From positions 769,066 through 833,065 of the forward strand of contig CP011212.1 in the NCBI GenBank assembly GCA_001029715.1: a stretch of DNA of 64,000 nucleotides, given 5' to 3'. This DNA comes from a candidate division TM6 bacterium GW2011_GWF2_28_16. Its GTDB lineage: Bacteria; Patescibacteriota; Microgenomatia; UBA1400; PJMF01. The notes beneath the pieces were generated by a model that was given only the letters and a program-made list of their open reading frames with translations, did not search any database and was not told the origin of the DNA. Shown here piece by piece: positions 31,225-62,906 of this stretch; the stretch's first letter is position 1; each line of letters begins with the position of its first letter. The translations under genes were made by a program, and so were the position numbers.

Positions 31225-31533
31225 TTAATAAGTCCAAGCCGTGAGGCTTGAGGAAATTTTTTCTTCCTCAAGCAGCGCTAGCCACAGGCTTACCCTTTCT
31301 AGGGGTAAGCCGTACTTCTCTGAAAAAACTTGCAGATTTGAATCCTGCATTTTTCCAGAGTGATAAGAGTAGTTGCAAAATACTTGCCTGTTTTTTCTAA
31401 CCAAAAACTCAACTGCTCCGGTTTTTAACTCGGTATCGTAAGATACCTTGTATTCGACTTCCGTTCCTAAAGCTACAGTTAATATAAACACTTCTAACCT
31501 CTCCTCTTCCTGAACTAAATTAAGGTTCTCCAA
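31225..31533 (-). CDS. hypothetical small protein (module gene A', paralog of 33075-33353)
   Basis: 102 aa. Shares the C-terminal region 'LPLERVSLWLALLEE' with the paralog's 'LVLSDVSAWLSVVDN', and the same terminator sequence at its 3' end. Confidence 0.45.
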   Translation of the reverse strand: MENLNLVQEEERLEVFILTVALGTEVEYKVSYDTELKTGAVEFLVRKNRQVFCNYSYHSGKMQDSNLQVFSEKYGLPLERVSLWLALLEEEKISSSLTAWTY

Positions 31534-31622
31534 TGTTATTTATCTCCAAATCAGCGCGTGGCCGATTATTCGATAAATAATTTAAGGGGTATATTATATC
31601 AAGATGTACTAAAAAAGTCAAT

Positions 31623-31633
31623 GTTATAGGATA
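31623..31633. promoter_or_regulatory. GTTATAGGATA core, copy 1 (with conserved flank AAAAAGTCAATGTTATAGGATA)
   Basis: The 11-mer recurs at 33459-33469, 61617-61627 and 61659-61669. Here it lies in the divergent intergenic region between the A' gene and the papain-like gene. Confidence 0.45.
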
Positions 31634-31690: not shown

Positions 31691-32608
31691 ATGAACACGA
31701 ATATAGAAACACACCTTGCAAATAATATTGGTAAAGATGTCGTTGGACTTAATCAGATGGTAAATCACGAAGTGCAAGAGAGTGACTTTCTTGCTGCGGT
31801 GGATGCCGCTCCAGCTATGCAAAAACTTTTTTCCGAAATTGATCCAAGCCTTCTTTTGTCCAAAGAATTAAATAAGTTTATAGAAGTTGAAAAAGAAATG
31901 CTTGGCAAAATAATTTGTCTTCCCACTACCATCTTGATGGCAATCAGACACCTGAAAAAAGAATCTAAATCTCTAACCCTCTCAGAATTTTATGAATTAG
32001 GAATTTATGCTCACACAAATGACCTCCATTCAGAAAATGGTGCTATTGAAAAAGGATTTCCTTCTTTTCATAGAAATGGCTTAGACACCTATCTTCGTTA
32101 TGCTTTAGAATTTGCTAAAATCAATGGTTTGGGAGGTGGAATTATCACTAATTTTTCAAATCTAGATTTTATAAGAAAAGTAACTAATAACGGAGTTGTA
32201 ATCTTGTCGGTTGATAACCTCTTTATTCCAAAAGTAATGAACACCGATATTGACCCTTCAACATTCAAGCCATCTAGACATGCAGAGTTAGTTCACGGCT
32301 TCTCAGAGAAAAATCTTTTAATAAGTGACGTCACCAATTCTAGAAATGGAACTACCTGGAATACGAGAAACAAATTTGTTCCGCAAACCGAAATAGAAAA
32401 ATATTTAACTTGTCCAAGGCTAAATGACACTTTCACTAGAGCAATTATTCTCACAAAAAATGATTTAGATTGGGACAAAATTACAGAAAAAATTGCAGAA
32501 GATGGGAACATCGAAAAACCGAATTACAATCCAATGCTGTCACCATTTTTTAATAAGGGAATAGATGCAACTCTCAAAGCAATGCGTCCAAATAGCTATT
32601 TAGATTAA
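31691..32608 (+). CDS. hypothetical protein with a putative papain-fold (peptidase C39-like) cysteine peptidase domain
   Basis: Candidate catalytic Cys in 'GKIICLPTTILMAI' (N-cap of a helix). Downstream 'RHAELVHGFSEKNLLISDV' resembles the C39 H-x-V-V-L-x-G-Y...I-x-D block. Confidence 0.35.
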   Translation: MNTNIETHLANNIGKDVVGLNQMVNHEVQESDFLAAVDAAPAMQKLFSEIDPSLLLSKELNKFIEVEKEMLGKIICLPTTILMAIRHLKKESKSLTLSEFYELGIYAHTNDLHSENGAIEKGFPSFHRNGLDTYLRYALEFAKINGLGGGIITNFSNLDFIRKVTNNGVVILSVDNLFIPKVMNTDIDPSTFKPSRHAELVHGFSEKNLLISDVTNSRNGTTWNTRNKFVPQTEIEKYLTCPRLNDTFTRAIILTKNDLDWDKITEKIAEDGNIEKPNYNPMLSPFFNKGIDATLKAMRPNSYLD

Positions 32609-32919
32609 ACGAGATACGAGTGCTTAGTATTCCAAGATTTAAGATATTCTTCTTTACTAGCGCCCCATTCTGGACCTACTATTTCAGAAACATCTTCAAT
32701 GTCGTTGGGATCAACTAATGTGTGAAGAACTGCATTGGCTAATATTTTGAGGATTTTATCGTAAGCTCGATATTTTTCTTCAAATGAAGTTTGCTCATTT
32801 AACATTAGTGCAACAAGCTCATCGTCTGCACCATATTTTTTTGCAATTTCCAATAATCTTTCTGCGCTTACAACTTCAACATTTTGGTGTTGATTAAGAA
32901 CTTCTAGGTTTTTAAACAT
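32605..32919 (-). CDS. hypothetical small protein (module gene B', paralog of 33491-33826)
   Basis: 'ERLLEIAKKYGADDELVALMLNEQTSFEEKYRAYDKILKILANAV' aligns with the paralog's 'ERQLEVSRKYGVPEEVIATVLDKNASDEDKDKAFGKILEIIGSAI'. Confidence 0.45.
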   Translation of the reverse strand: MFKNLEVLNQHQNVEVVSAERLLEIAKKYGADDELVALMLNEQTSFEEKYRAYDKILKILANAVLHTLVDPNDIEDVSEIVGPEWGASKEEYLKSWNTKHSYLV

Positions 32920-33074: not shown

Positions 33075-33353
33075 TTAATTTTTTCTTTCCCAAACGGTAG
33101 ACTTCTCAAAATTTGAGTTGTTATCTACCACTGATAGCCATGCGCTGACATCGCTTAAAACCAGGCCTAGATCTTCTCTAATCTCATTGAGTGAAAATTT
33201 CTCCACAGAAATAGCTTCTGTAGTAGCAACTTCCATGCCGTTAATGTACAAGGAAATAATAATTTCCTTGTTTTGTCTGTCATAAATGACAAACAGATCT
33301 ACACCATTCCTTAAGCATATCTTCAAGTCATACATTGTCTTCTTTTCCTCCAA
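33075..33353 (-). CDS. hypothetical small protein (module gene A)
   Basis: 92-aa ORF, paralogous to 31225-31533. Confidence 0.45.
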   Translation of the reverse strand: MEEKKTMYDLKICLRNGVDLFVIYDRQNKEIIISLYINGMEVATTEAISVEKFSLNEIREDLGLVLSDVSAWLSVVDNNSNFEKSTVWERKN

Positions 33354-33458
33354 AAATTAAGGTTCTTCAAATTTTTTGCCGCCAAGTCAACAGATAGTCG
33401 ACTCTTAAACAAATAATTTGAGAACTGGATTATACCAAAAAATACCTAGAAAATCAAT

Positions 33459-33469
33459 GTTATAGGATA
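33459..33469. promoter_or_regulatory. GTTATAGGATA core, copy 2 (flank GAAAATCAATGTTATAGGATA)
   Basis: Lies between module genes A and B. About 40 bp of flank is similar to copy 1 ('attata.caa...tac.taaaaaa.tcaatgttataggata'). Confidence 0.45.
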
Positions 33470-33490: not shown

Positions 33491-33826
33491 CTAAATTCTA
33501 TTACCAATGATAGCATTTGCTATTTTATAGTCTTCGACATCGACTTTTTGAGCATAAATAGCACTACCTATAATTTCAAGAATTTTTCCGAATGCTTTGT
33601 CTTTATCTTCATCTGAAGCATTTTTATCCAATACAGTTGCGATGACTTCTTCAGGAACGCCATACTTCCTGGAAACTTCCAATTGCCTTTCTGGAGTTAT
33701 TTCTTCGTCCATAATTTTTTGGACATTATCAGACCATGGTCTTTCTTTTGGTTCAACTTCACTATCAACTTCAGCACCTGTAATAGATTCTGAAATATTT
33801 GCTTCTGGATTTTTTGGCATTACCAA
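33491..33826 (-). CDS. hypothetical small protein (module gene B)
   Basis: 111-aa ORF, paralogous to 32605-32919. Confidence 0.45.
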   Translation of the reverse strand: MVMPKNPEANISESITGAEVDSEVEPKERPWSDNVQKIMDEEITPERQLEVSRKYGVPEEVIATVLDKNASDEDKDKAFGKILEIIGSAIYAQKVDVEDYKIANAIIGNRI

Positions 33827-34469: not shown

Positions 34470-35198
34470 CTATAGTCTAGATTGCTCTTGCTGTATTTTT
34501 TTTATCAAATCAGGAAAATATCCATACTGTTTATTGTTTTTATCATACATTCTTTGCAGATTATCAATTCCCTCATTAATAGGTCTTATTTTTTGACCAA
34601 AGACTGATAAGTAAACTTCCCCATCCTGATCCTTAAAAATAAAATACGCATGCCTATCTAAAAGATTTAAACCTTCAAATACATTCCTTATATGTCTCTT
34701 AGTATTAGAAAACATTAACAGTCTAACTTCAGTACCAGGAAAATAAATTTTAGAAATTGTACTAATAAAGGTTGCATACTCTATACAATTAACAGTTTCT
34801 TTAAATGGCTTGGTCATAAAAGACTCATCTTTAGTAAACAAACTCATGGTAAAGTTCAAGTTATTGCTAGCATTTTCAAATGAAGCTAGAAGGTTTCCTT
34901 TTGACCTCGCTGAGTTTTGATCAGTTGTAAAATCCACAAACTCTCTTAAGCTTTTGTAATAAGGTTTGCTATTTTCATCCAGCATGAATTTATCGACTGC
35001 TTCTTTAACTTTTTCATCAGCAAATTTATAAACACCATCGTCACAACTGGAAATTTTTATTGCTCTCCCAATACTATTAACCAGAGTAGTATTAATTGGT
35101 CCAAGATGACCTTCAACGGTAGCACCGGCGGTAGCTTTATCAGTCAAACCTAATTTGTGTAGTCTATTTCCTAATTCTGCAAAAACGATATTCGGCAC
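34470..35198 (-). CDS. hypothetical protein (242 aa)
   Basis: Clean ORF adjacent to the tRNA-Trp scar; no family recognised. Confidence 0.45.
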   Translation of the reverse strand: MPNIVFAELGNRLHKLGLTDKATAGATVEGHLGPINTTLVNSIGRAIKISSCDDGVYKFADEKVKEAVDKFMLDENSKPYYKSLREFVDFTTDQNSARSKGNLLASFENASNNLNFTMSLFTKDESFMTKPFKETVNCIEYATFISTISKIYFPGTEVRLLMFSNTKRHIRNVFEGLNLLDRHAYFIFKDQDGEVYLSVFGQKIRPINEGIDNLQRMYDKNNKQYGYFPDLIKKIQQEQSRL

Positions 35199-35223: not shown

Positions 35224-35241
35224 AGCAGGGCGGGAAGGAAT
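35224..35241 (-). repeat. 18-nt direct duplicate of the tRNA-Trp 3' end (T-loop 3' half + acceptor 3' strand), att-like scar
   Basis: 'gcagggcgggaaggaatc' is identical to 35399-35416 inside the tRNA-Trp gene, in the same orientation, 157 bp away. Confidence 0.6.
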
Positions 35242-35367
35242 CCACGACTCGCCTATCTGTATTTTCTGGAAGATAGCTCGCTGCATTACCCAGGCTCGCT
35301 TCACTCGCTTGGCGGCAGAACTACTGCTTCGCAAGGACGTCTCTTCATTACCACAACAAGTATAAAA

Positions 35368-35392: not shown

Positions 35393-35399
35393 ATACTTG

Positions 35400-35470
35400 C
35401 AGGGCGGGAAGGAATCGAACCTTCATCAAGGGTTTTGGAGACCCCGATTCTACCGTTGAAATACCGCCCT
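35400..35470 (-). tRNA. tRNA-Trp (anticodon CCA)
   Basis: Reverse complement 'AGGGCGG-TA-TTTCAACGGTAGAA-TC-GGGGT-CTCCAAA-ACCCT-TGAT-GAAGG-TTCGATT-CCTTC-CCGCCCT-G'. 7-bp acceptor stem, anticodon loop CU-CCA-AA, T-loop TTCGATT. Confidence 0.8.
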
Positions 35471-52344: not shown

Positions 52345-55300
52345 TTACTTAGTTCCTAAAAATCCAAATATCAAAGACATATTGGAAACCACCAAATCTA
52401 AGGCATTGTCCGTAGCTTTTGGAGTAATTACTACTTTATCAACTGACTCTCCCACATTACTATACTGATCTTTTGATAAGGCTCGCAAGTGATAAACCTT
52501 CGATGGAGTTAATCCAGAAATAACAACTATATGGTGACTTGTTAAGGAAGCATCTTCTTGAGTTTTTTGTGAATAAGTTGAACCACTACCCTCTCCAAAC
52601 TCAATTTGGGCAGATGCTGGTTCATCCGTGTTAAACGAAACTAATAATTGAGCGGTTGATTCTTCTCCTACTCCAAGAATTTCTCCTTCCACTCTGAGAT
52701 CACTAATTTGAGGAGGCCTACTATCTGCCGAGGTTGCAATCTGTTGGAACTCACCAACAGCTTCATTACCAACGGCATCTTTACCTTTGATTAAAATTCC
52801 ATAAGTTGTCTGTGAATCAAGATCATAAATAATCATTTGATGTTTACCAGACTTAAGAGCAAGATTGACTTCGTCTTTGGCTGCCCCCGGAGCGGTAACT
52901 GGATAATAGGTTACAATTGAAGAAATACTGGTGTTTGATTCCCAAGTAACTAATAGAGTCGATCTAGCAGTCCCTTTAACTTGACTCACTTTAATATTTT
53001 TGATTTTTGGTCTTGGTAAAGTTTCGAATGAATGAATTTCACCCTCATATTCTTCACCCTCTGAGTCAAAAGAGTTAATTTTGTAATAATATTTAGTGCC
53101 ATCTTTCAAGTCTGAAAGTTGCACAGTGTGCGTACCCTCTCCAGAGCCAGTCACTACATTTTCGATTCCGCCAAAAGCAGATGATTCACCAAAATAAACT
53201 CTAACGCTAGCAGCATTTTTTGATATAAATTGAATTAAAGCACTGTCCAAACCCATACTTTTTACCTGAGGTTCTTCTGTTGTTGGAGCTGGCTCTGTAA
53301 CAAAAGTTGCTTCAGCAGACTCACCAGTGTTTCCATCTTCATCCGTCCATTTAGCAATATAATAGTAAGTAGTTCCCGGAGAAAGGTTGAGTAAGTTTAA
53401 TGCATGATTAGTTGCTTGAATGGAATTTGAAACTTCTTCATCAAAATAATCACCAGGACTCGTTCCATAAGATATCCTCGAATCAGCTGTTCTTGCTGTG
53501 GACCAAGCAACAGAAGCTTTTTTAGTGGTCACATTTGAAACCACTGGCTCAGATACTAGACCAGCTGGTTCAATAAATTTTCCATCTGGAAATAATTCAA
53601 CCACTTCAGAAAATGCACCACAATTATTAGTGCTATCACAAACTTTGACTTTGTAATAATACTCTTGCTGAATCAAACCAGTATCAACGTAAGAAATACC
53701 ACCACTAGTAGCTATTTGAGCAAATGTTTCACCATCTATTGATCGATAAATAGCATAATGATCAGAAATACCACCCTCCGACGGAGCTTCCCAAGACAAA
53801 GCAATCTTCCAAGAGCTAGTGGCTTTAACAGAAACATCAGCAATATCCATATTAAGTGGAATTCCTGGAGCAGTGGTGTCTGCTGTAAAGATAACCGACG
53901 CATAATTTGAGTAATTTATGTTTCCCGCTTCGTCTTTAGTCACAATATAAAGAACATTTTCACCTGGTAAAGTTGCATAAGCCCCAGCAACTAAATTTCT
54001 TACACTAGTTCCAGTGGTACTATGGGCTGTTGGCAATGCATTAATACTGTAATAATAAGACAAATTAGAAACTGAGCCATAATAAGTTCCTGTTGCTGGA
54101 GGATCCCAACTAAAAGCAAAGGAATTTTCCGTATTAGATGATGGCGTGACTACTAAATTAGTTGGAGGTGCTGGAGCATTGCCGCTATCTACATAATAAT
54201 ATGGTGTAGATGCGTAATCACTATAGTTACCAGCCTCATCTTTACTACGAACATAAAAAGTATTCGCTCCCACTTTATGTGAAGGTATACCAGTGACAGA
54301 AGTGCTAGTGATACATTGATCTTCTGCATAAGTTCCTGAAGTGGCAGCAGTTTTATAACAATATCCAGTAATCTGTGCTCCACTGCTGGTGGACTCACTC
54401 CAAGAAAAATCAAAACTATCCGTAGCTGAATAGCCAGATGGATCAGCCGATAAATCAGCTGGAGCGGCTGGGGGTCGCGAATCATATTTATAAATGAAAG
54501 GTGCCCAAGCTTCTGCTGAAACATTTCCAGCATTATCAATCGTCTTAACTCTCAAATAATAAGTCTCTCCATCGGTCAAATTGCTAGCAGAATAGTTGCT
54601 ATCAACTTGAAGCGAACCGTCTTCTTCTGGATTTGCTGATGAATTTGTTCCAAAGTAAACATAATATCCAGCTACCCCTGAACCAGTACTTGTATCAGAA
54701 GCTCCATCTGTAGATTCTGCATCTGGCCAATCAAAATATGGATTACTATGCCCATACCAATTTGAGGAAACTATTGCCGTTCCAGGATCACTATTGCTAT
54801 AAGTAGCTAAACCAGAAGTTTGTGGATTTGTTGGCGCAGAAGTGTCTTTGTAATAATTAACCGTATAATCATTAATAACGCCAGAATAGACGCCATCTGA
54901 TGATGAAAGTTCAAATTTTATTTCAAGGTAACGAGCTGCTGGAGACTTAATTTCATAAATATAGCTTGAACCATTCTTCTTCTCAGAGGCTACTGCAGTC
55001 CAAGACGACCAAGTACTATTGTCAGCAGAACTGCGTGTTTTAATGCTAAGAGAAGCGTTATTTGCTAAAACATAATCAACTTGTAAATTTATCCATTTGT
55101 AGACTGAATCTAAATCGTGAGAAACAGAAGTATAAGTTCCCTCTTCTTCAAAAGAAGAAGTAGCTGTCTCCATAATGTATGTATAAATTCCATTGTCATA
55201 ACCACCAGTGCCGGTACCAGATAGCATAAAAACTTTGTCCACTCCATTACTTTCACCAGATCCACCAACATAAATTTTAGAGGGTGCATTGCCTAATTGA

Positions 55301-58300
55301 GTCCAATTGTTATCTACCACTGAATATTTATAAAAATCATTATCATTTTCACCTCTAGCAGCATAGATATTTCCATCTCCACCGTAAGTCGCGAAGCCAT
55401 CATTGTAAACATCTATATTCAGGTCGCTAACAGCTGGATCACTCCAAGTATTGCTTGCAATGTCATAGCGATAAAAAGGATTATTGGCTACGTTTTGGCC
55501 CCTTAAGGTATAAATATAGTTATTACCATCAAAAACCAGCTCAGCTCCATAACCCAAACCAGCAGGCGAAGCAGTCATAGTAGACCATTTGCTACCAGCA
55601 CTACCCTGCGTATCAAATCTATAGAAAGTAGTATTTGCTCCACCCCTATTTAAATAAATATAACGAGATCCGTCATAAGCCATAGAGCTACCATAATCTG
55701 TAACAGCAAGAGTTGGATCATCAACTTCTTCAGACCAAGTATTCGAAGCAATGTTATAAACATAAAATCTTTGTAAATAATAGCCACCAGTTAGATAAAT
55801 TTTATTTTGCGTACTATCATAAACTAATGAAGATCCAGAATAAGTCCCAGTAGGAGTTGAAGCCAGTTTTTGCATTGACCCAGTGCTCGAATCATAACGC
55901 ACAAAATCATCTGAATAGTTTCCTTTGGTTAGATAAAAATAATTACCATCACCCTTAACAAGATCTTCTCCATAGCCAGGATATACATAGTCCGTACCTT
56001 GATATGTTGTCCCGAACAAACCTACATTAGGGATTAGCCAGCTATCCTTTGAAACACTATATTTATAAAAATTAGTTCTATTGCCACCAATAATGGCATA
56101 TAAACTGTCACCAACATTTTTAAGATTGGCTCCATAATAAAAGGTGTATGGGGCTGAAGAAACCTCCTCCCAAGTTTGATCTGAAGTTTTAAACTTATAC
56201 ATCTTGTCAGAATAATAACCAGGAACAAAATAAACTGCCTCCGCGCTTGGAACGTATTCTATTGACGATCCTAAATAAGATAATTGAGGTAAATCTGGCA
56301 GAACCGCCCAAGAATTTGAGTTCATATTATAAACAGCAAACCCATCGCGAATATTACCTTGAGTAGCATAAACAAAACCATTTTCTCTATCTATTGCTAG
56401 GTCAGCTCCAATATAAGCACTATTATTAACAGCATTGGTAGTAGCACCAAAATCTAAGTTTGATAAAGATTCCCAACTATCCCCAACAGCGTCATATCTC
56501 CAAAAAGCATCATCATTATTTCCACGCATTACATAAACGTGTCCAGAACCGTCATATTCCATGGAAGCACCATAATAAACTGCTAAAGGGGCGTCACTTG
56601 CATCTTCATCACTCCAAATATTGTTTTCTATGTCATAACGATAAAATGAAGAAGTATTATTACCACGCAAACCATAAAGATAACCGTCTGGTCCTTCCAC
56701 TACTCCACCGCCAATATAAATATTTCCTGGAGCATTAGCTAAAGTCGACCAAGTATCACTAGCTAGATCGTAACCATAAAAAGTTGCTACATTTGCACCT
56801 CTAAAAGCAAAAAGCTTGTTTAATGATGCAACGTAGGCTGTATTTTTTGCTCCATATTGCATAGTTGCTGGAACATTACTTAATGGCTCTTGTAACCAAA
56901 AACCTCCCTCTCTGCTAGCTAATTTTAGTTGATTATTGCCTGTGTTAATTTCATCAGCAGTACCAACAAAATCAGTTATTGTTAAACTTTGCGGTGGCGA
57001 AATACCTGCATAAACATAAGTGAATATTGTGCTTGCATCACTAATATTCCCATAGCTATCTTTTGTTTTAATTCTTAAATAATAAGAACCAGTACTTAAG
57101 CTTTCAGTTACAGTGTAATTACTATTTGTCTGAAAAAATCCTACTGATTCTGGATCAGCTACTTCATTACTACCAAAATAAACATAATATCCAGCAACCT
57201 CAGATTGCGCATCGGTTGCTCCACTCCATGAGAAGTAGGGGCGAATATAATTATATGTTTCTCCACTAGTCAGTGCTATACCAGCAACCTGCTGAGAGAG
57301 ACCACTAATGGCATCTGGATTGCTTGGTGCCAAAGTATCACCTGCATAAGAAATACTAATCTCACTTAACGTCGGGCTACTAGCAGAGCCGCTTGAAGCC
57401 ACCAGTGTTGCTTTAACCTGAATAAATCTTTGAGCTGGAGAAGAAATCACTCCGCTCGCCACAACAACCCAATCACTCCAAGATAAAGCGTCACTACTAG
57501 TTCTAGTTTCATAAATAATACTGCTATCGTCTGGAGTTGATGAGGTAGCAGAAAAAGCAGTAAAACTAGAAACGTAAGCTAGATCTTTAATTTCAGAGGT
57601 CCATGATCCAGTGGCATAATACTTATTTGCTGCAGGAGTATAAGTGAGAATATTTTGGCGACCATTTCCATAAGAAATATAAAAAGAATTATTGCTATCA
57701 TATTCAATAGAAGCACCTGCATAAACTCCATTATCCTGAGCATAATAACCAGGAATACTCTGCAATTTCCTCCAATTATCTAAAGAAATATTGTACTCAT
57801 AAATGTCTTTTTTGTACCAACCTGCCAAAGCAACAATTTTTCCATCATGGTAAGCAAGATCGGTGCCGTAAAATGGAGCAAATGGAGGCTTAGCAACTTC
57901 TGTCCATACATTGTCATTAATTGTATATTTAAAAAATCTGCTAATACCAACTCCAGGAATATAGAATATATCAGTACCATCAGAGATAAGACGAGAACCA
58001 TACGAAGACTCTGCATCCACAGGTAAATCAGCCACTGAGACATCATCCCAAGAGTTTCCAGAAATACTGTATCTCCAAAAAGAATTAGTGGTAGCTCCAC
58101 GCGTTGCATAGATATAATCTCCAGAACCAGGATAGGATAGAGCTCCTCCAAAACGCACTGTAGTTGGCGGAGCAGTCATCGTAGTCCAACTGTCTCCTGA
58201 AGGACTGTATCTATAAAAACTATTAGTGTTCCCGCCTCTAAAAAAATAAAGATCAGAACCAGCTACTACTCCTTTGACATCATCTGTCATTGTTCCTGGA

Positions 58301-59463
58301 GTAGCGGTTAAGGTGGTCCAAACATTGGCGGAAGGATCATATTTATAAAATGTAGAGTTTGCACCACGCAATACATACATGTCATCATCGTAATAAACGA
58401 TATCACTACCTGTGGATAGAGTGCCTGGAGCATCATCAACGCCAATAAACGAATTTGTTGCTGGATCGTATTTCCAAAAATTGTATGTTCCATTTCCTTG
58501 AAAAACATAAACATAACCATCATTGCTGTTATAGATAGAACCAGCATAACGGGAAACTGCTGGGAGATTGGCTAAAGTTGACCAAGTATTTGAAACAATG
58601 TCATAAGCATAAAAAGAATTTGTTCCACTCTGTCTGGTAACATAAATTTTGCTGCCATCGGTGGAAATTTCAACGTCTTCATTAATTGTGACCGGTAAAA
58701 CAGCCATTGTTGCCCAAATGTTAGCGGTTAGGTCATATCTATAAAATGTGTTTGTATTACTTCCACGAGGCGTGTACAAATAATTCCCCACTCTAACCAA
58801 ATCTGATCCAGAAGAAGTTGTAGCTGGAGTACCAGCCATAGGACTCCAAGAATTATTGCCAACGTCGTATTTATAAAAATCTTGTGTACCACCCGAACGG
58901 AGAGCATAGATACTCGTGCCATCATTTTCCAAACTGGCTCCAGAGTAAATCAGATCTGGCAAATCGCTCAACATTTCCCAAGAATCATTAGCCACCGAAT
59001 AACGAGCAAAAGCAGTTTGATAGCCACCAAACATGGCATAAACATAACCATCCATATATTCCAACTCTGATCCGTAGTAAGTTCCTCTCGGCAAATTAGC
59101 CAAAGTAGTCCATTTATCATTTTCAGGAGAATATTTCCAAAATAGAACATCTCCAGTTCCTCTTGAAACATAAATATCTTCACCATCAAAGGCTAAAGCC
59201 GTACCTGCGCTTAAAGTAAGATCTGGAGCTCTCCAACTTTTTGCTCCAAAAGTTCCAGCTGCACTTATTGAAACATCTCCTTCTTTGATAGAAAAATCTA
59301 AATTTAGATTTGTCCCAGCATCCCAATCAGAACTAGTAGTAAAAAATGTTTCTGAGGCCCTAACTGGAAATTCATAAAAAAGTAAATTTAAGGCAAAAAA
59401 AGACATCACAACAAAAGCAATTCTCAACACAAAAAACTCGCGATTGTTGAATCCCGAAACCAT
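52345..59463 (-). CDS. giant (2372 aa) membrane-anchored or secreted surface protein: Kelch-type beta-propeller repeats interleaved with and followed by fibronectin type III-like domains
   Basis: N-terminal hydrophobic segment 'FFVLRIAFVVMSFFALNLLF'. More than 25 repeats of ~47 aa matching the Kelch blade pattern (IYV..G.....FY.YD...N.W..L...P). FN3-like modules such as 'APSNPDAISGL...YYVYFGSNE...YYLRIKTKDSYGNIS' and 'APTNPQTSGL...YYLRVKTIDNAGNVS', then at least 5 tandem FN3-like modules at the C-terminus. No LPxTG-type sorting signal. Confidence 0.7.
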   Translation of the reverse strand: MVSGFNNREFFVLRIAFVVMSFFALNLLFYEFPVRASETFFTTSSDWDAGTNLNLDFSIKEGDVSISAAGTFGAKSWRAPDLTLSAGTALAFDGEDIYVSRGTGDVLFWKYSPENDKWTTLANLPRGTYYGSELEYMDGYVYAMFGGYQTAFARYSVANDSWEMLSDLPDLIYSGASLENDGTSIYALRSGGTQDFYKYDVGNNSWSPMAGTPATTSSGSDLVRVGNYLYTPRGSNTNTFYRYDLTANIWATMAVLPVTINEDVEISTDGSKIYVTRQSGTNSFYAYDIVSNTWSTLANLPAVSRYAGSIYNSNDGYVYVFQGNGTYNFWKYDPATNSFIGVDDAPGTLSTGSDIVYYDDDMYVLRGANSTFYKYDPSANVWTTLTATPGTMTDDVKGVVAGSDLYFFRGGNTNSFYRYSPSGDSWTTMTAPPTTVRFGGALSYPGSGDYIYATRGATTNSFWRYSISGNSWDDVSVADLPVDAESSYGSRLISDGTDIFYIPGVGISRFFKYTINDNVWTEVAKPPFAPFYGTDLAYHDGKIVALAGWYKKDIYEYNISLDNWRKLQSIPGYYAQDNGVYAGASIEYDSNNSFYISYGNGRQNILTYTPAANKYYATGSWTSEIKDLAYVSSFTAFSATSSTPDDSSIIYETRTSSDALSWSDWVVVASGVISSPAQRFIQVKATLVASSGSASSPTLSEISISYAGDTLAPSNPDAISGLSQQVAGIALTSGETYNYIRPYFSWSGATDAQSEVAGYYVYFGSNEVADPESVGFFQTNSNYTVTESLSTGSYYLRIKTKDSYGNISDASTIFTYVYAGISPPQSLTITDFVGTADEINTGNNQLKLASREGGFWLQEPLSNVPATMQYGAKNTAYVASLNKLFAFRGANVATFYGYDLASDTWSTLANAPGNIYIGGGVVEGPDGYLYGLRGNNTSSFYRYDIENNIWSDEDASDAPLAVYYGASMEYDGSGHVYVMRGNNDDAFWRYDAVGDSWESLSNLDFGATTNAVNNSAYIGADLAIDRENGFVYATQGNIRDGFAVYNMNSNSWAVLPDLPQLSYLGSSIEYVPSAEAVYFVPGYYSDKMYKFKTSDQTWEEVSSAPYTFYYGANLKNVGDSLYAIIGGNRTNFYKYSVSKDSWLIPNVGLFGTTYQGTDYVYPGYGEDLVKGDGNYFYLTKGNYSDDFVRYDSSTGSMQKLASTPTGTYSGSSLVYDSTQNKIYLTGGYYLQRFYVYNIASNTWSEEVDDPTLAVTDYGSSMAYDGSRYIYLNRGGANTTFYRFDTQGSAGSKWSTMTASPAGLGYGAELVFDGNNYIYTLRGQNVANNPFYRYDIASNTWSDPAVSDLNIDVYNDGFATYGGDGNIYAARGENDNDFYKYSVVDNNWTQLGNAPSKIYVGGSGESNGVDKVFMLSGTGTGGYDNGIYTYIMETATSSFEEEGTYTSVSHDLDSVYKWINLQVDYVLANNASLSIKTRSSADNSTWSSWTAVASEKKNGSSYIYEIKSPAARYLEIKFELSSSDGVYSGVINDYTVNYYKDTSAPTNPQTSGLATYSNSDPGTAIVSSNWYGHSNPYFDWPDAESTDGASDTSTGSGVAGYYVYFGTNSSANPEEDGSLQVDSNYSASNLTDGETYYLRVKTIDNAGNVSAEAWAPFIYKYDSRPPAAPADLSADPSGYSATDSFDFSWSESTSSGAQITGYCYKTAATSGTYAEDQCITSTSVTGIPSHKVGANTFYVRSKDEAGNYSDYASTPYYYVDSGNAPAPPTNLVVTPSSNTENSFAFSWDPPATGTYYGSVSNLSYYYSINALPTAHSTTGTSVRNLVAGAYATLPGENVLYIVTKDEAGNINYSNYASVIFTADTTAPGIPLNMDIADVSVKATSSWKIALSWEAPSEGGISDHYAIYRSIDGETFAQIATSGGISYVDTGLIQQEYYYKVKVCDSTNNCGAFSEVVELFPDGKFIEPAGLVSEPVVSNVTTKKASVAWSTARTADSRISYGTSPGDYFDEEVSNSIQATNHALNLLNLSPGTTYYYIAKWTDEDGNTGESAEATFVTEPAPTTEEPQVKSMGLDSALIQFISKNAASVRVYFGESSAFGGIENVVTGSGEGTHTVQLSDLKDGTKYYYKINSFDSEGEEYEGEIHSFETLPRPKIKNIKVSQVKGTARSTLLVTWESNTSISSIVTYYPVTAPGAAKDEVNLALKSGKHQMIIYDLDSQTTYGILIKGKDAVGNEAVGEFQQIATSADSRPPQISDLRVEGEILGVGEESTAQLLVSFNTDEPASAQIEFGEGSGSTYSQKTQEDASLTSHHIVVISGLTPSKVYHLRALSKDQYSNVGESVDKVVITPKATDNALDLVVSNMSLIFGFLGTK

Positions 59464-60777: not shown

Positions 60778-60806
60778 AAAACCCCGCCACAGTGCGGGGT
60801 TTTTCA
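60778..60806 (+). terminator. rho-independent terminator after rplL (CCCCGC/GCGGGG stem + T5)
   Basis: 'gaaaaccccgccacagtgcggggtttttc'. Confidence 0.7.
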
Positions 60807-60839
60807 TGGCACAAAGGTAACAAGCTTTTTTAGTTTAAT

Positions 60840-61538: not shown

Positions 61539-61616
61539 GCATCTTTTCTAAAACCGAATCAATTCTATTTTTGGAATATTTTTGTGCATTTTTTACACAT
61601 TTCTCTAATCTAAAAA

Positions 61617-61627
61617 GTTATAGGATA
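61617..61627. promoter_or_regulatory. GTTATAGGATA core, copy 3 (flank AAAAAGTTATAGGATA)
   Basis: One of two tandem copies 42 bp apart in the 333-bp region upstream of the excisionase-family gene. Confidence 0.45.
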
Positions 61628-61658
61628 TAAGTTTCGCCTATTTTCTTGTTTTCAAAAA

Positions 61659-61669
61659 GTTATAGGATA
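61659..61669. promoter_or_regulatory. GTTATAGGATA core, copy 4 (flank AAAAAGTTATAGGATA)
   Basis: Identical 16-mer to copy 3. Confidence 0.45.
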
Positions 61670-61871
61670 ATTGTGTGGAAAAAGAGGTAAAACTATTCAG
61701 CATAAAAACTCAATTTTCCCTCTTGACCCACAGAGTCTCAATCTGTTACTGTTGGATATAGATCAAAATAATACTTTGATCTAAAAAGACTTACTCAGCA
61801 CCGCGATAAGCCAAAACTATAGGCTATTTTAAAAATAAAAAAGGGCAAAATTGCCCTAAACGAAAGGAAAA

Positions 61872-62144
61872 ATGAACGATAACCTCAACATAATCAGTGA
61901 GGACGATAAAAAAACAGGTCGCGCTGACGATGCCAGTAAATTAGACATCAAAAACCTCCCTGATTTATTAACTGTCCGTGAAGTTGCCGATTTATTGCGC
62001 GTTTCTCCTTTGACCATCAAACGCTGGGGCAAAAGAGGTAAATTGCCAGCTATTCGTATTAACTCCAGAGGTGACAGACGCTACAAAAAAGAAGCCGTGC
62101 TTTGGCTTCTAGGTGTCAATCCAAATGGTGCTGAAGAAGAATAA
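61872..62144 (+). CDS. excisionase-family (MerR-like winged) helix-turn-helix DNA-binding protein
   Basis: 'LLTVREVADLLRVSPLTIKRWGKRGKLPAIRINSRGDRRY' closely fits the excisionase/AlpA-type pattern (LLTxxEAAxLLxVSxxTIxRWxxxGxLPAxRIGxRxxRI). Confidence 0.6.
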   Translation: MNDNLNIISEDDKKTGRADDASKLDIKNLPDLLTVREVADLLRVSPLTIKRWGKRGKLPAIRINSRGDRRYKKEAVLWLLGVNPNGAEEE

Positions 62145-62153
62145 GCTTAAAGC

Positions 62154-62906
62154 TTAAAAAATCTCTTTGATAATTAGATAAATAAATTCGATTAGACGGA
62201 GTTGCCTATACTTGCGCCAAGGTTGCTTAATCAGGCGCCACAGCCACTCTAAACCCATTTTTTGCATGAAAAGTGGCGCTCTACTCACTTTGTCAAAGAT
62301 AAAGTCAAAAGAACCGCCAACAGCCATTACTAGCTTGACTCCATTTTTTTCTAAAAGCCCAATATGTTCAACAATCCACTCTTCCTGATATGGTGCTCCC
62401 AAAGCTACAAAAACAAAATCTGGCTGAAGTTTTTCGATTAGTTTCTCTAACGCTTCTTTTTCTATGGGATGAATGTGTTTTTTATTTTGATAAGCCTCTG
62501 TCCAAAATACATTATCACTGAGATGATCAGCGTAATCACGACCACCAATAATTAAGCTTCTTAAACCTTTTTTTAGAGACAAAGACAATAAATGTTCTAC
62601 CAACTCCACTCCAGCGATGCGCTCAGGAATTTTAGTGTTAACTTTGCCAAAAAAATTCAGTAAATTAGCGGCAACAACTAAACCAATCCCATCTGGTAAA
62701 AGATAATCACCTTGTTTTAGAGCCTTGGCAAAAACCTTGTCGTGCTTGGCTAAAACAATTTGCTCTGGATTGGGTGTAAAAACCTTCAAAGTCTTGGTTT
62801 TCTCCGACTGATTTACTTCAGTAGCCAAAAATTGATCAAAAAAATCAAAGAGCTCTGCTTTTTTAACACTGAGGATCTCTAAATTAAAAAGACGGCTTGT
62901 TTGCAT
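62154..62906 (-). CDS. WecB/TagA/CpsF-family glycosyltransferase (N-acetylmannosaminyl-transferase-like)
   Basis: 'DYLLPDGIGLVVAANLL', 'HIHPIEKEALEKLIEKLQPDFVFVALGAPYQEEWI', 'LWRLIKQPWRKY' typical of the family. Confidence 0.7.
   Translation of the reverse strand: MQTSRLFNLEILSVKKAELFDFFDQFLATEVNQSEKTKTLKVFTPNPEQIVLAKHDKVFAKALKQGDYLLPDGIGLVVAANLLNFFGKVNTKIPERIAGVELVEHLLSLSLKKGLRSLIIGGRDYADHLSDNVFWTEAYQNKKHIHPIEKEALEKLIEKLQPDFVFVALGAPYQEEWIVEHIGLLEKNGVKLVMAVGGSFDFIFDKVSRAPLFMQKMGLEWLWRLIKQPWRKYRQLRLIEFIYLIIKEIF

Follow-up and report, generated by a model that had tools for sequence, protein, structure and literature searches.

A selected sequence word as candidate operator of a BldC-like winged-helix protein in a Microgenomates bacterium

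To our knowledge, almost no transcription-factor regulons have been described in the Candidate Phyla Radiation (CPR). A stretch of 64,000 nucleotides (nt) from one of its members, deposited as candidate division TM6 bacterium GW2011_GWF2_28_16 (contig CP011212.1, positions 769,066 to 833,065; hereafter the window), raises a question of this kind; the organism lived in groundwater. The word GTTATAGGATA, 11 nt long, occurs twice in front of a gene for a 90-amino-acid (aa) helix-turn-helix (HTH) protein resembling BldC of Streptomyces, and once in each of two modules of an islet of orphan genes. What is this word, and which protein reads it? The word is, with good confidence, a putative protein-binding operator kept by selection. 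The full statement, that it is the operator of the BldC-like protein, which would thereby regulate both itself and the orphan genes, is given a probability of roughly 0.45. As a class of element, a transcription-factor operator with an autoregulatory loop appears the probable assignment.

Exact copies of GTTATAGGATA start at 31623, 33459, 61617, and 61659, all on the plus strand. The expectation from dinucleotide shuffles of the window is 0.04 copies, and none of 100 shuffles reached four, which places the count far beyond chance. The only copy with one mismatch lies on the minus strand inside a coding region (45057). When up to two mismatches are allowed, the window yields 12 matches against 17.8 expected, and this count below expectation indicates a few sharp sites instead of a diffuse general signal. 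The two copies at the HTH gene share the 16-mer AAAAAGTTATAGGATA (61612-61627 and 61654-61669, 42 nt start to start), and the two islet copies share the flank CAATGTTATAGGATA; both the tandem pair 42 bp apart and the islet copies with the same 11-nt core and an extended flank had been claimed in a preliminary description of this DNA, and both are confirmed. A degenerate fifth copy, the third at the HTH gene, was overlooked there (AAAACTATAGGCTAT, 61813-61827). The region upstream of the HTH gene contains the following features:

61591-61599, plus strand: DnaA-box-like 9-mer TTTTACACA, which fits TTWTNCACA and forms the left edge of a conserved block.
61612-61627, plus strand: site O1, AAAAAGTTATAGGATA, with its core centred about -136 from the predicted transcription start; kept in related loci L010-L016 and L068.
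61654-61669, plus strand: site O2, AAAAAGTTATAGGATA, 42 nt after O1, with its core centred about -94.
61674-61682, minus strand: DnaA-box-like 9-mer TTTTCCACA (plus-strand reading TGTGGAAAA), which begins 7 nt past the TATAGG of O2.
61723-61752, plus strand: predicted HTH-gene promoter, with -35 TTGACC (61723-61728), an 18-nt spacer, and extended -10 TGtTACTGT (61744-61752).
61759-61783, plus strand: predicted hairpin at the 5' end of the HTH mRNA, TAGATCAAAATA / TACTTTGATCTA, from an inverted pair and its fold.
61813-61827, plus strand: site O3, AAAACTATAGGCTAT, degenerate, in the predicted 5' untranslated region (UTR) at about +55 to +69 (centre about +62), -54 from the ATG.
61842-61857, no strand assigned: GC-rich palindrome AGGGCAAAATTGCCCT, 14 nt before the ATG, with a T-run on the minus strand.
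61872-62144, plus strand: BldC-like 90-aa winged-helix gene, with a variable acidic N-terminal tail and a near-invariant winged HTH (wHTH) core.

As judged from the promoter, transcription of the HTH gene would start near 61758 and give a 114-nt leader. Conservation between strains starts abruptly at TTTTACACA (61591), the preceding 100 nt being only 40-70% identical. Strains whose overall identity with the window is only ~90% reach 92-100% across the non-coding interval 61619-61871, and the same range holds for the 280-nt non-coding block 61592-61871.

The comparison was widened to 81 Microgenomates species collected via the HTH protein, the loci being the best matches to that protein. Within 400 nt upstream of the HTH start, TATAGG occurs 50 times on the gene strand and five times on the opposite strand, with a background of ~1 per 100-nt bin summed over all loci. 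At least one upstream TATAGG, always in the same orientation, is present in 32 of the 81 species, and the 50 sites combine into a matrix of the form AAAA(a/g)tTATAGGaT(a/t). The usual layout comprises two upstream copies and a further one 35-69 nt before the ATG, where an equivalent of O3 (AAAAGTTATGGGAYAT or TATAGG) is found in ~15 species. The distance between the two upstream copies is 21-22 nt in 10 species, 31-32 nt in two, and 42 nt in nine, corresponding to two, three, and four helical turns, as is expected of proteins that sit on one helix face and touch each other. Additionally, 37% of the matrix hits elsewhere are intergenic, whereas cores permuted within unchanged flanks give 13% (p = 2e-4), and of 90 hexamers tested TATAGG has the strongest intergenic bias; the raw intergenic enrichment over the intergenic share of DNA is seen in species with and without the upstream module. 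These other sites differ in their placement at promoters, with examples upstream of the -35, within the spacer (L089), and over the -10 (L034), a variety of positions that fits an operator and not a promoter element. A metagenome-wide scan for the composite CCTATAAYRTTGAYT-N16-18-TAHWAT was uninformative: it gave more than 118 matches, mostly in unrelated organisms, with unconserved flanks, many of them carrying CCTATAAT, a plain -10 box beside a second promoter, and L103 alone among them also encodes the HTH protein. On sequence comparison, then, the motif is under selection and tied both to promoters and to the HTH gene.

The promoter of the HTH gene itself is more widely kept, with the consensus aattt.cctcTTGACcca-(18)-TcTGnTActtT found in 76 of the 81 species and the 18-nt spacer in 59. 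Together with the promoter, aattt.cctc just before the -35 is the stretch that is conserved everywhere.

How are the islet copies placed? Each module holds a single site next to a promoter on the other strand:

31623-31633, plus strand: islet site 1, minus-strand reading TATCCTATAAC, at about -47 to -37 of the promoter 31593-31621.
31593-31621, minus strand: islet promoter 1, TTGACT-17-TATAAT with TG extension, 11/12 matches, predicted to drive A1.
31225-31533, minus strand: orphan gene A1 of 88-102 aa, according to the start codon chosen (GTG at 31491 is likelier); no family match.
31218 to 31194, minus strand: GC-rich terminator downstream of A1.
33459-33469, plus strand: islet site 2, at about -47 to -37 of the promoter 33429-33457 and 22 nt past the stop of the open reading frame (ORF) 33491-33826.
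33429-33457, minus strand: islet promoter 2, TTGATT-17-TATAAT with TG extension, 10/12 matches, predicted to drive A2.
33075-33353, minus strand: orphan gene A2, 86 aa from the ATG at 33335, with a conserved ~90-nt 5' UTR.
33068 to 33046, minus strand: GC-rich terminator downstream of A2.

Read on the minus strand, the arrangement is TATCCTATAAC-A-TTGAYT, in which the motif abuts the -35 with its centre at ~-42; the 'CAATG' flank of the preliminary description is simply this -35 box in reverse. The modules go back to an old duplication: their A proteins are 25% and their B proteins 37% identical, yet the 15-mer is the same in both. Both TCCTATAAYATTGA and the TG-extended TATAAT are retained in front of the A2 orthologues (L095-L098; protein identities of 68%, 74%, and 93%), whereas the sequence bordering the motif on its 5' side is unrelated, being a tRNA 3' end in L095 and L096. 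The islet-type composite also stands before unrelated genes, as TAGCCTATAACATTGACT-17-TACAAT in L039 and as TCCTATAATGTTGACT-17-TAATAT in L069. A tie between the islet sites and those of the HTH gene is supported but not proven by these sequences.

The islet has further features of its own. Its remaining ORFs are 31691-32608 (plus strand) and 32605-32919, 33491-33826, and 34470-35198 (minus strand). A database search returned only six close relatives of protein A, and the islet proteins had no matches in PHROG or NCBIfam; Pfam gave only a sub-threshold C39-like peptidase match for the islet, weak and found in the 305-aa protein (E 2.7e-4), and a neighbouring membrane gene with a VTT domain (PF09335), the other islet genes being orphans. 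The 104-aa and 111-aa islet proteins are paralogues with 37% identity, and a separate near-consensus promoter (32989 to 32962) belongs to the 104-aa gene. The ~90-nt 5' UTR of the A genes (CTCAAATTATTTGTTTAAGAGTCGACT...GAAGAACCTTAATTT; 33354-33428 and 31534-31592, minus strand) is strongly conserved in paralogues and orthologues (L095-L098), which suggests a second control element acting at the RNA level or binding a protein. At the islet edge, the 3' end of tRNA-Trp is repeated as an exact 18-nt copy 174 nt from the gene (35225-35242 and 35399-35416), resembling an att scar, and a motif-bearing promoter directly follows a tRNA 3' end in L039, L095, and L096. A search for the islet in a diverged strain by means of RpmB returned the same strain only.

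The candidate reader encoded next to the tandem sites matches the Pfam families HTH_17, MerR, and MerR_1 over residues 32-81 and shows no other domain match. It also scores above the cutoff of TIGR01764 'excise' (34.8 bits, cutoff 28.8) and matches excisionase families of PHROG, and it was labelled an excisionase in the preliminary description. That label is a misnomer: no integrase or recombinase domain was found among the called genes within 10 kb of the HTH gene in any strain, and the gene is a core gene, syntenic with rplJ-rplL (no more than 10 kb apart in 68 of the 81 species), and not part of a mobile element. The best solved relatives are the BldC-DNA complexes PDB 6AMK and 6AMA (E 1e-8). 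In the alignment with 6AMA, TVTRWAKAGKL of BldC faces TIKRWGKRGKL, so that Arg30 and Lys36 correspond to R51 and K57, both invariant in 81/81 species. Moreover, median identity across the species reaches 96% in the core of 54 residues (LPDLLTVREVADLLRVSPLTIKRWGKRGKLPAIRINSRGDRRYKKEAVLWLLGV), as compared with 72% for RplL and ~50% for RplJ of the same loci (L010-L090), a comparison to be read with the fact that the loci were picked as best matches to the HTH protein itself.

On direct repeats, BldC proteins line up head to tail, with Arg30 and Lys36 touching the DNA, and the outcome is repression or activation depending on the target (PMC5859096, PMC6428758). The protein described here is likewise a small stand-alone MerR-like winged helix without an effector or coiled-coil domain; it keeps the aligned Arg30 and Lys36, and its candidate sites are direct repeats on one helix face. 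It differs in an extra N-terminal tail of ~28 aa and in its host, a member of the Pacebacteria (CPR) with no link to development. Excisionases of the lambda Xis type belong to the same wHTH family, and Xis binds tandem direct repeats as a filament, as cited in PMC5859096. Around the present gene there is neither an integrase nor an att site nor a mobile element of the kind that accompanies excisionases of phages and integrative and conjugative elements, and the sites lie at promoters, not in recombination arms. With classical MerR regulators the protein shares the N-terminal HTH fold (Pfam MerR, MerR_1). Those regulators are dimers with a coiled coil and bind a palindrome inside a 19-20-nt promoter spacer; the protein described here lacks the dimerisation helix, and its sites are direct repeats upstream of the -35 or far upstream.

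These observations can be assembled into a mechanism. The motif, in its general form AAAA(a/g)tTATAGGaT in the relatives, would be bound by a sequence-specific protein. At the HTH gene, O1 and O2 would present two binding sites on one helix face (42 nt, four turns), centred ~136 and ~94 nt ahead of the predicted start, with the weaker copy O3 in the 5' UTR near +60. In the islet, a single copy would act against the -35 of two near-consensus promoters, each in the opposite orientation and serving one small orphan gene. Such a placement, at about -47 to -37 of sigma-70 promoters, resembles known operators that abut the -35, namely those of class II activators (-41.5) and of many repressors. Since the islet promoters are already near consensus, repression is more likely there than activation, though this is a guess. 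The adjacent 90-aa BldC-like protein would be the binder and would thus regulate itself as well as the orphan genes.

That the binder of the motif is this adjacent protein has a little less than an even chance. The preliminary description had already proposed that the protein recognises these sites; of that idea, the selected site tied to the HTH gene stands, in 32/81 species, in the islets, and in the A2 orthologues, and the choice of binder is argued from co-localisation. In its favour are the adjacency in 32 species and the direct-repeat, in-phase layout that is typical of BldC and Xis relatives. Furthermore, a motif kept across deep lineages needs a conserved reading head, which the 96% identity of the wHTH core fits.

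Several points weigh against this reading. The link between protein and site is one of adjacency and co-occurrence, and that between islet and HTH sites is thin, consisting of one shared 11-mer, a ~0.04 chance event in the window. The scan for exact 11-mers covered 64 kb of a ~850-kb genome, a small sample. The remaining 49 of the 81 species keep the invariant protein and the conserved promoter without an upstream TATAGG, so that autoregulation through TATAGG would be lineage-specific at best. The conserved promoter stretch with aattt.cctc could be the protein's real site at its own gene. Among NCBIfam families, HTH_BldC (NF033787) ranks first with 44.9 bits (E 7.6e-12), below the curated cutoff of 77, and the protein is therefore BldC-like and no certified member of the subfamily. 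BldC makes few base contacts and reads DNA shape, on contiguous units of ~9-11 bp of the form AATTxxxx(C), and its sites 'cannot be predicted bioinformatically' (PMC5859096, PMC6428758), whereas the present sites have a sharp TATAGG, lie 22-42 nt apart, and contrast with BldC's contiguous and loose AATTxxxx(C) units. A unit of the AATTxxxx(C) type, AATTTTCCC, does lie just upstream of the HTH -35; it is single and degenerate, and no claim is based on it. Finally, the 9-mers flanking the tandem sites resemble DnaA boxes, and another protein may therefore act there.

This last point leads to the strongest competitor, in which the motif is the operator of a different regulator that controls the BldC-like gene and the orphan genes, perhaps together with DnaA at the TTWTNCACA boxes. 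All evidence for selection and for promoter association applies to it equally, its sharp TATAGG core is unlike the loose sites that BldC reads by shape, and the survival of the protein without the upstream motif in 49 species is readily accommodated. The boxes themselves add to its support. TTTTACACA on the plus strand and TTTTCCACA on the minus strand bracket O1 and O2 as an inverted pair; TTWTNCACA is ~40-fold enriched at -400 to -200 of the HTH gene across the 81 species; such a pair, 54-83 nt apart, is present in ~25 species; and the reverse box starts 7 nt past the second TATAGG, a gap that is constant in ~16 species. The flanking 9-mers fit the relaxed form of the DnaA box, and perfect TTATCCACA boxes occur in L044, L055, L060, and L067. 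Because the two boxes fit TTWTNCACA independently and show no stem covariation, they look like protein sites, and DnaA acting as a co-regulator at the tandem sites, through these putative boxes, is possible. On the other side, the motif has no second DNA-binding gene as a consistent neighbour, DnaA-like boxes are absent from the islet sites, and the conservation of the motif across deep lineages is paralleled by that of this wHTH, which is unusually invariant. Few regulators are also generally expected in genomes of this group. A different regulator is thus a tentative alternative, doubtful but to be taken seriously.

A bolder version of the BldC-like reading would make the 90-aa protein an undescribed, hyper-conserved global regulator or nucleoid protein found throughout the Microgenomates. 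The A-tract followed by TATAGG would then be its genome-wide site, and the inverted box pair would link its expression to DnaA in a Pacebacteria-like clade. The idea comes from a wHTH core that exceeds RplL and RplJ in conservation, from the slot after rplJ-rplL, and from the group-wide promoter and 5' leader. It is nevertheless unlikely, and is put forward as speculation.

Could the upstream module instead be a replication-linked DnaA locus of the oriC, datA, or DARS type, with TATAGG bound by an architectural protein? The inverted box pair in ~25 species, some with perfect TTATCCACA, would suit such a locus, and the BldC and Xis relatives are architectural proteins. Against it, the module has two boxes only. 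In the whole window TTWTNCACA is not enriched (8 matches, 10.8 expected), and the islet copies of the motif have no boxes. GC skew is negative on both sides of the HTH upstream region, with no change of sign. In addition, an approximate DnaA query, run with no positive control, gave no match in the window or, within 10 kb, in any of the loci L001-L090, so that no dnaA is seen nearby as far as this soft evidence goes. An origin of replication was accordingly rejected as a candidate, and the replication-linked reading as a whole is quite improbable.

The preliminary description had also offered the motif as an unusual plus-strand promoter element, a -10 or extended -10. TATAGG does agree with TATAAT at 4/6 positions, and a TG precedes the islet copies. 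That TG, however, is part of CATTGA, the -35 of the minus strand, and the HTH copies lack it; the last position of the supposed -10 is a G where T is normally invariant; none of the four copies has a -35-like hexamer 16-18 nt upstream; a promoter scan reports no plus-strand promoter at any of them; and in module B no plus-strand gene follows the motif. The organism also uses canonical TTGACA-17-TATAAT sigma-70 promoters, as in the tRNA operon (TTGCAA-17-TATAAT), at rplJ (TGtATAAT), and in the islets. The promoter-element idea therefore falls, with very little probability left to it. A minus-strand promoter beside the HTH copies, in the style of the islet, was likewise considered and rejected: TTGAAA lies 3 nt further out, there is no acceptable -10, and the arrangement is inconsistent among relatives. 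Equally far-fetched is the view that the copies are functionless neutral remnants of a short repeat or mobile-element end, for although the islets consist of orphan DNA of low GC content, with a tRNA and an att-like scar close by, and all copies are direct repeats, the core is exact where flanks have diverged and neighbouring proteins are 25-37% identical, positions relative to promoters are kept across species, and the intergenic bias exceeds that of permuted controls.

The leader of the HTH gene carries further structure. The palindrome AGGGCAAAATTGCCCT had been described as a minus-strand terminator, and in this strain the hairpin with its minus-strand T-run is indeed present, within the predicted HTH leader. 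The terminator reading itself is weak. The nearest minus-strand gene, a convergent one of the WecG/TagA family (62154-62906), ends at 62154, 297 nt from the palindrome; in six related species (L011-L016) the GC hairpin is kept at its position with differing stem lengths and loops, and the minus-strand T-run is mostly lost. A hairpin that is kept without its T-run and lies in the leader is better read as a 5'-UTR stem-loop, which is the more likely nature of 61842-61857, and in this strain it may in addition block antisense read-through. A covariation test of this hairpin had little to work on, the stems being all G-runs and C-runs with little variation and the alignment uninformative. The WecG/TagA-family gene has its own terminator-like hairpin and T-run (62110 to 62090, minus strand), which lies inside the HTH coding region over the codons of the invariant YKKEAVLWLL.

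Nearer the predicted transcription start, the 5'-end hairpin is followed by tCACCG (61759-61800 with the hairpin), and many Microgenomates orthologues have an equivalent hairpin with CACCG in their leaders. The idea that the 333-nt spacer holds a structured RNA gene was rejected, given a fold z-score of only -2.7 and inverted 9-mers without stem covariation; Rfam gave no match for the spacer at gathering thresholds and none at E <= 5. A 29-aa ORF called in the spacer of one strain was also set aside, as its start codon is absent in the window.

Two observations concern the wider neighbourhood. In a diverged strain (L003/L004, 6715-8904, on a 751-kb contig), a gene for a 729-aa trehalose-phosphate synthase/phosphatase stands between rplL and a 232-aa gene, and it is absent from the corresponding place in the window (60787-60819). 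Directly upstream of rplJ, the minus strand encodes a giant protein of 2372 aa with Kelch-like beta-propeller and fibronectin-III repeats (52345-59463).

What, then, does the locus mean for this group of bacteria? In kind the finding is ordinary bacterial gene regulation, and its interest lies in the lineage and in the unusual conservation of the BldC-like protein. In the full-text literature, none of the top matches for BldC with Patescibacteria, Candidate Phyla Radiation, or Microgenomates contains 'BldC'. The pairing of protein and motif is concrete and testable, as it involves a small and easily purified protein, a sharp word, and three promoter regions, and recurs across many Microgenomates. 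Even if the pairing fails, the motif points to a conserved regulon, with its factor to be found. If it is true, this would be the first operator defined for the lineage, and a BldC-type protein would read a well-defined sequence instead of DNA shape. Should the global-regulator version hold, these ultra-small bacteria would possess a master regulator tied to their replication cycle.

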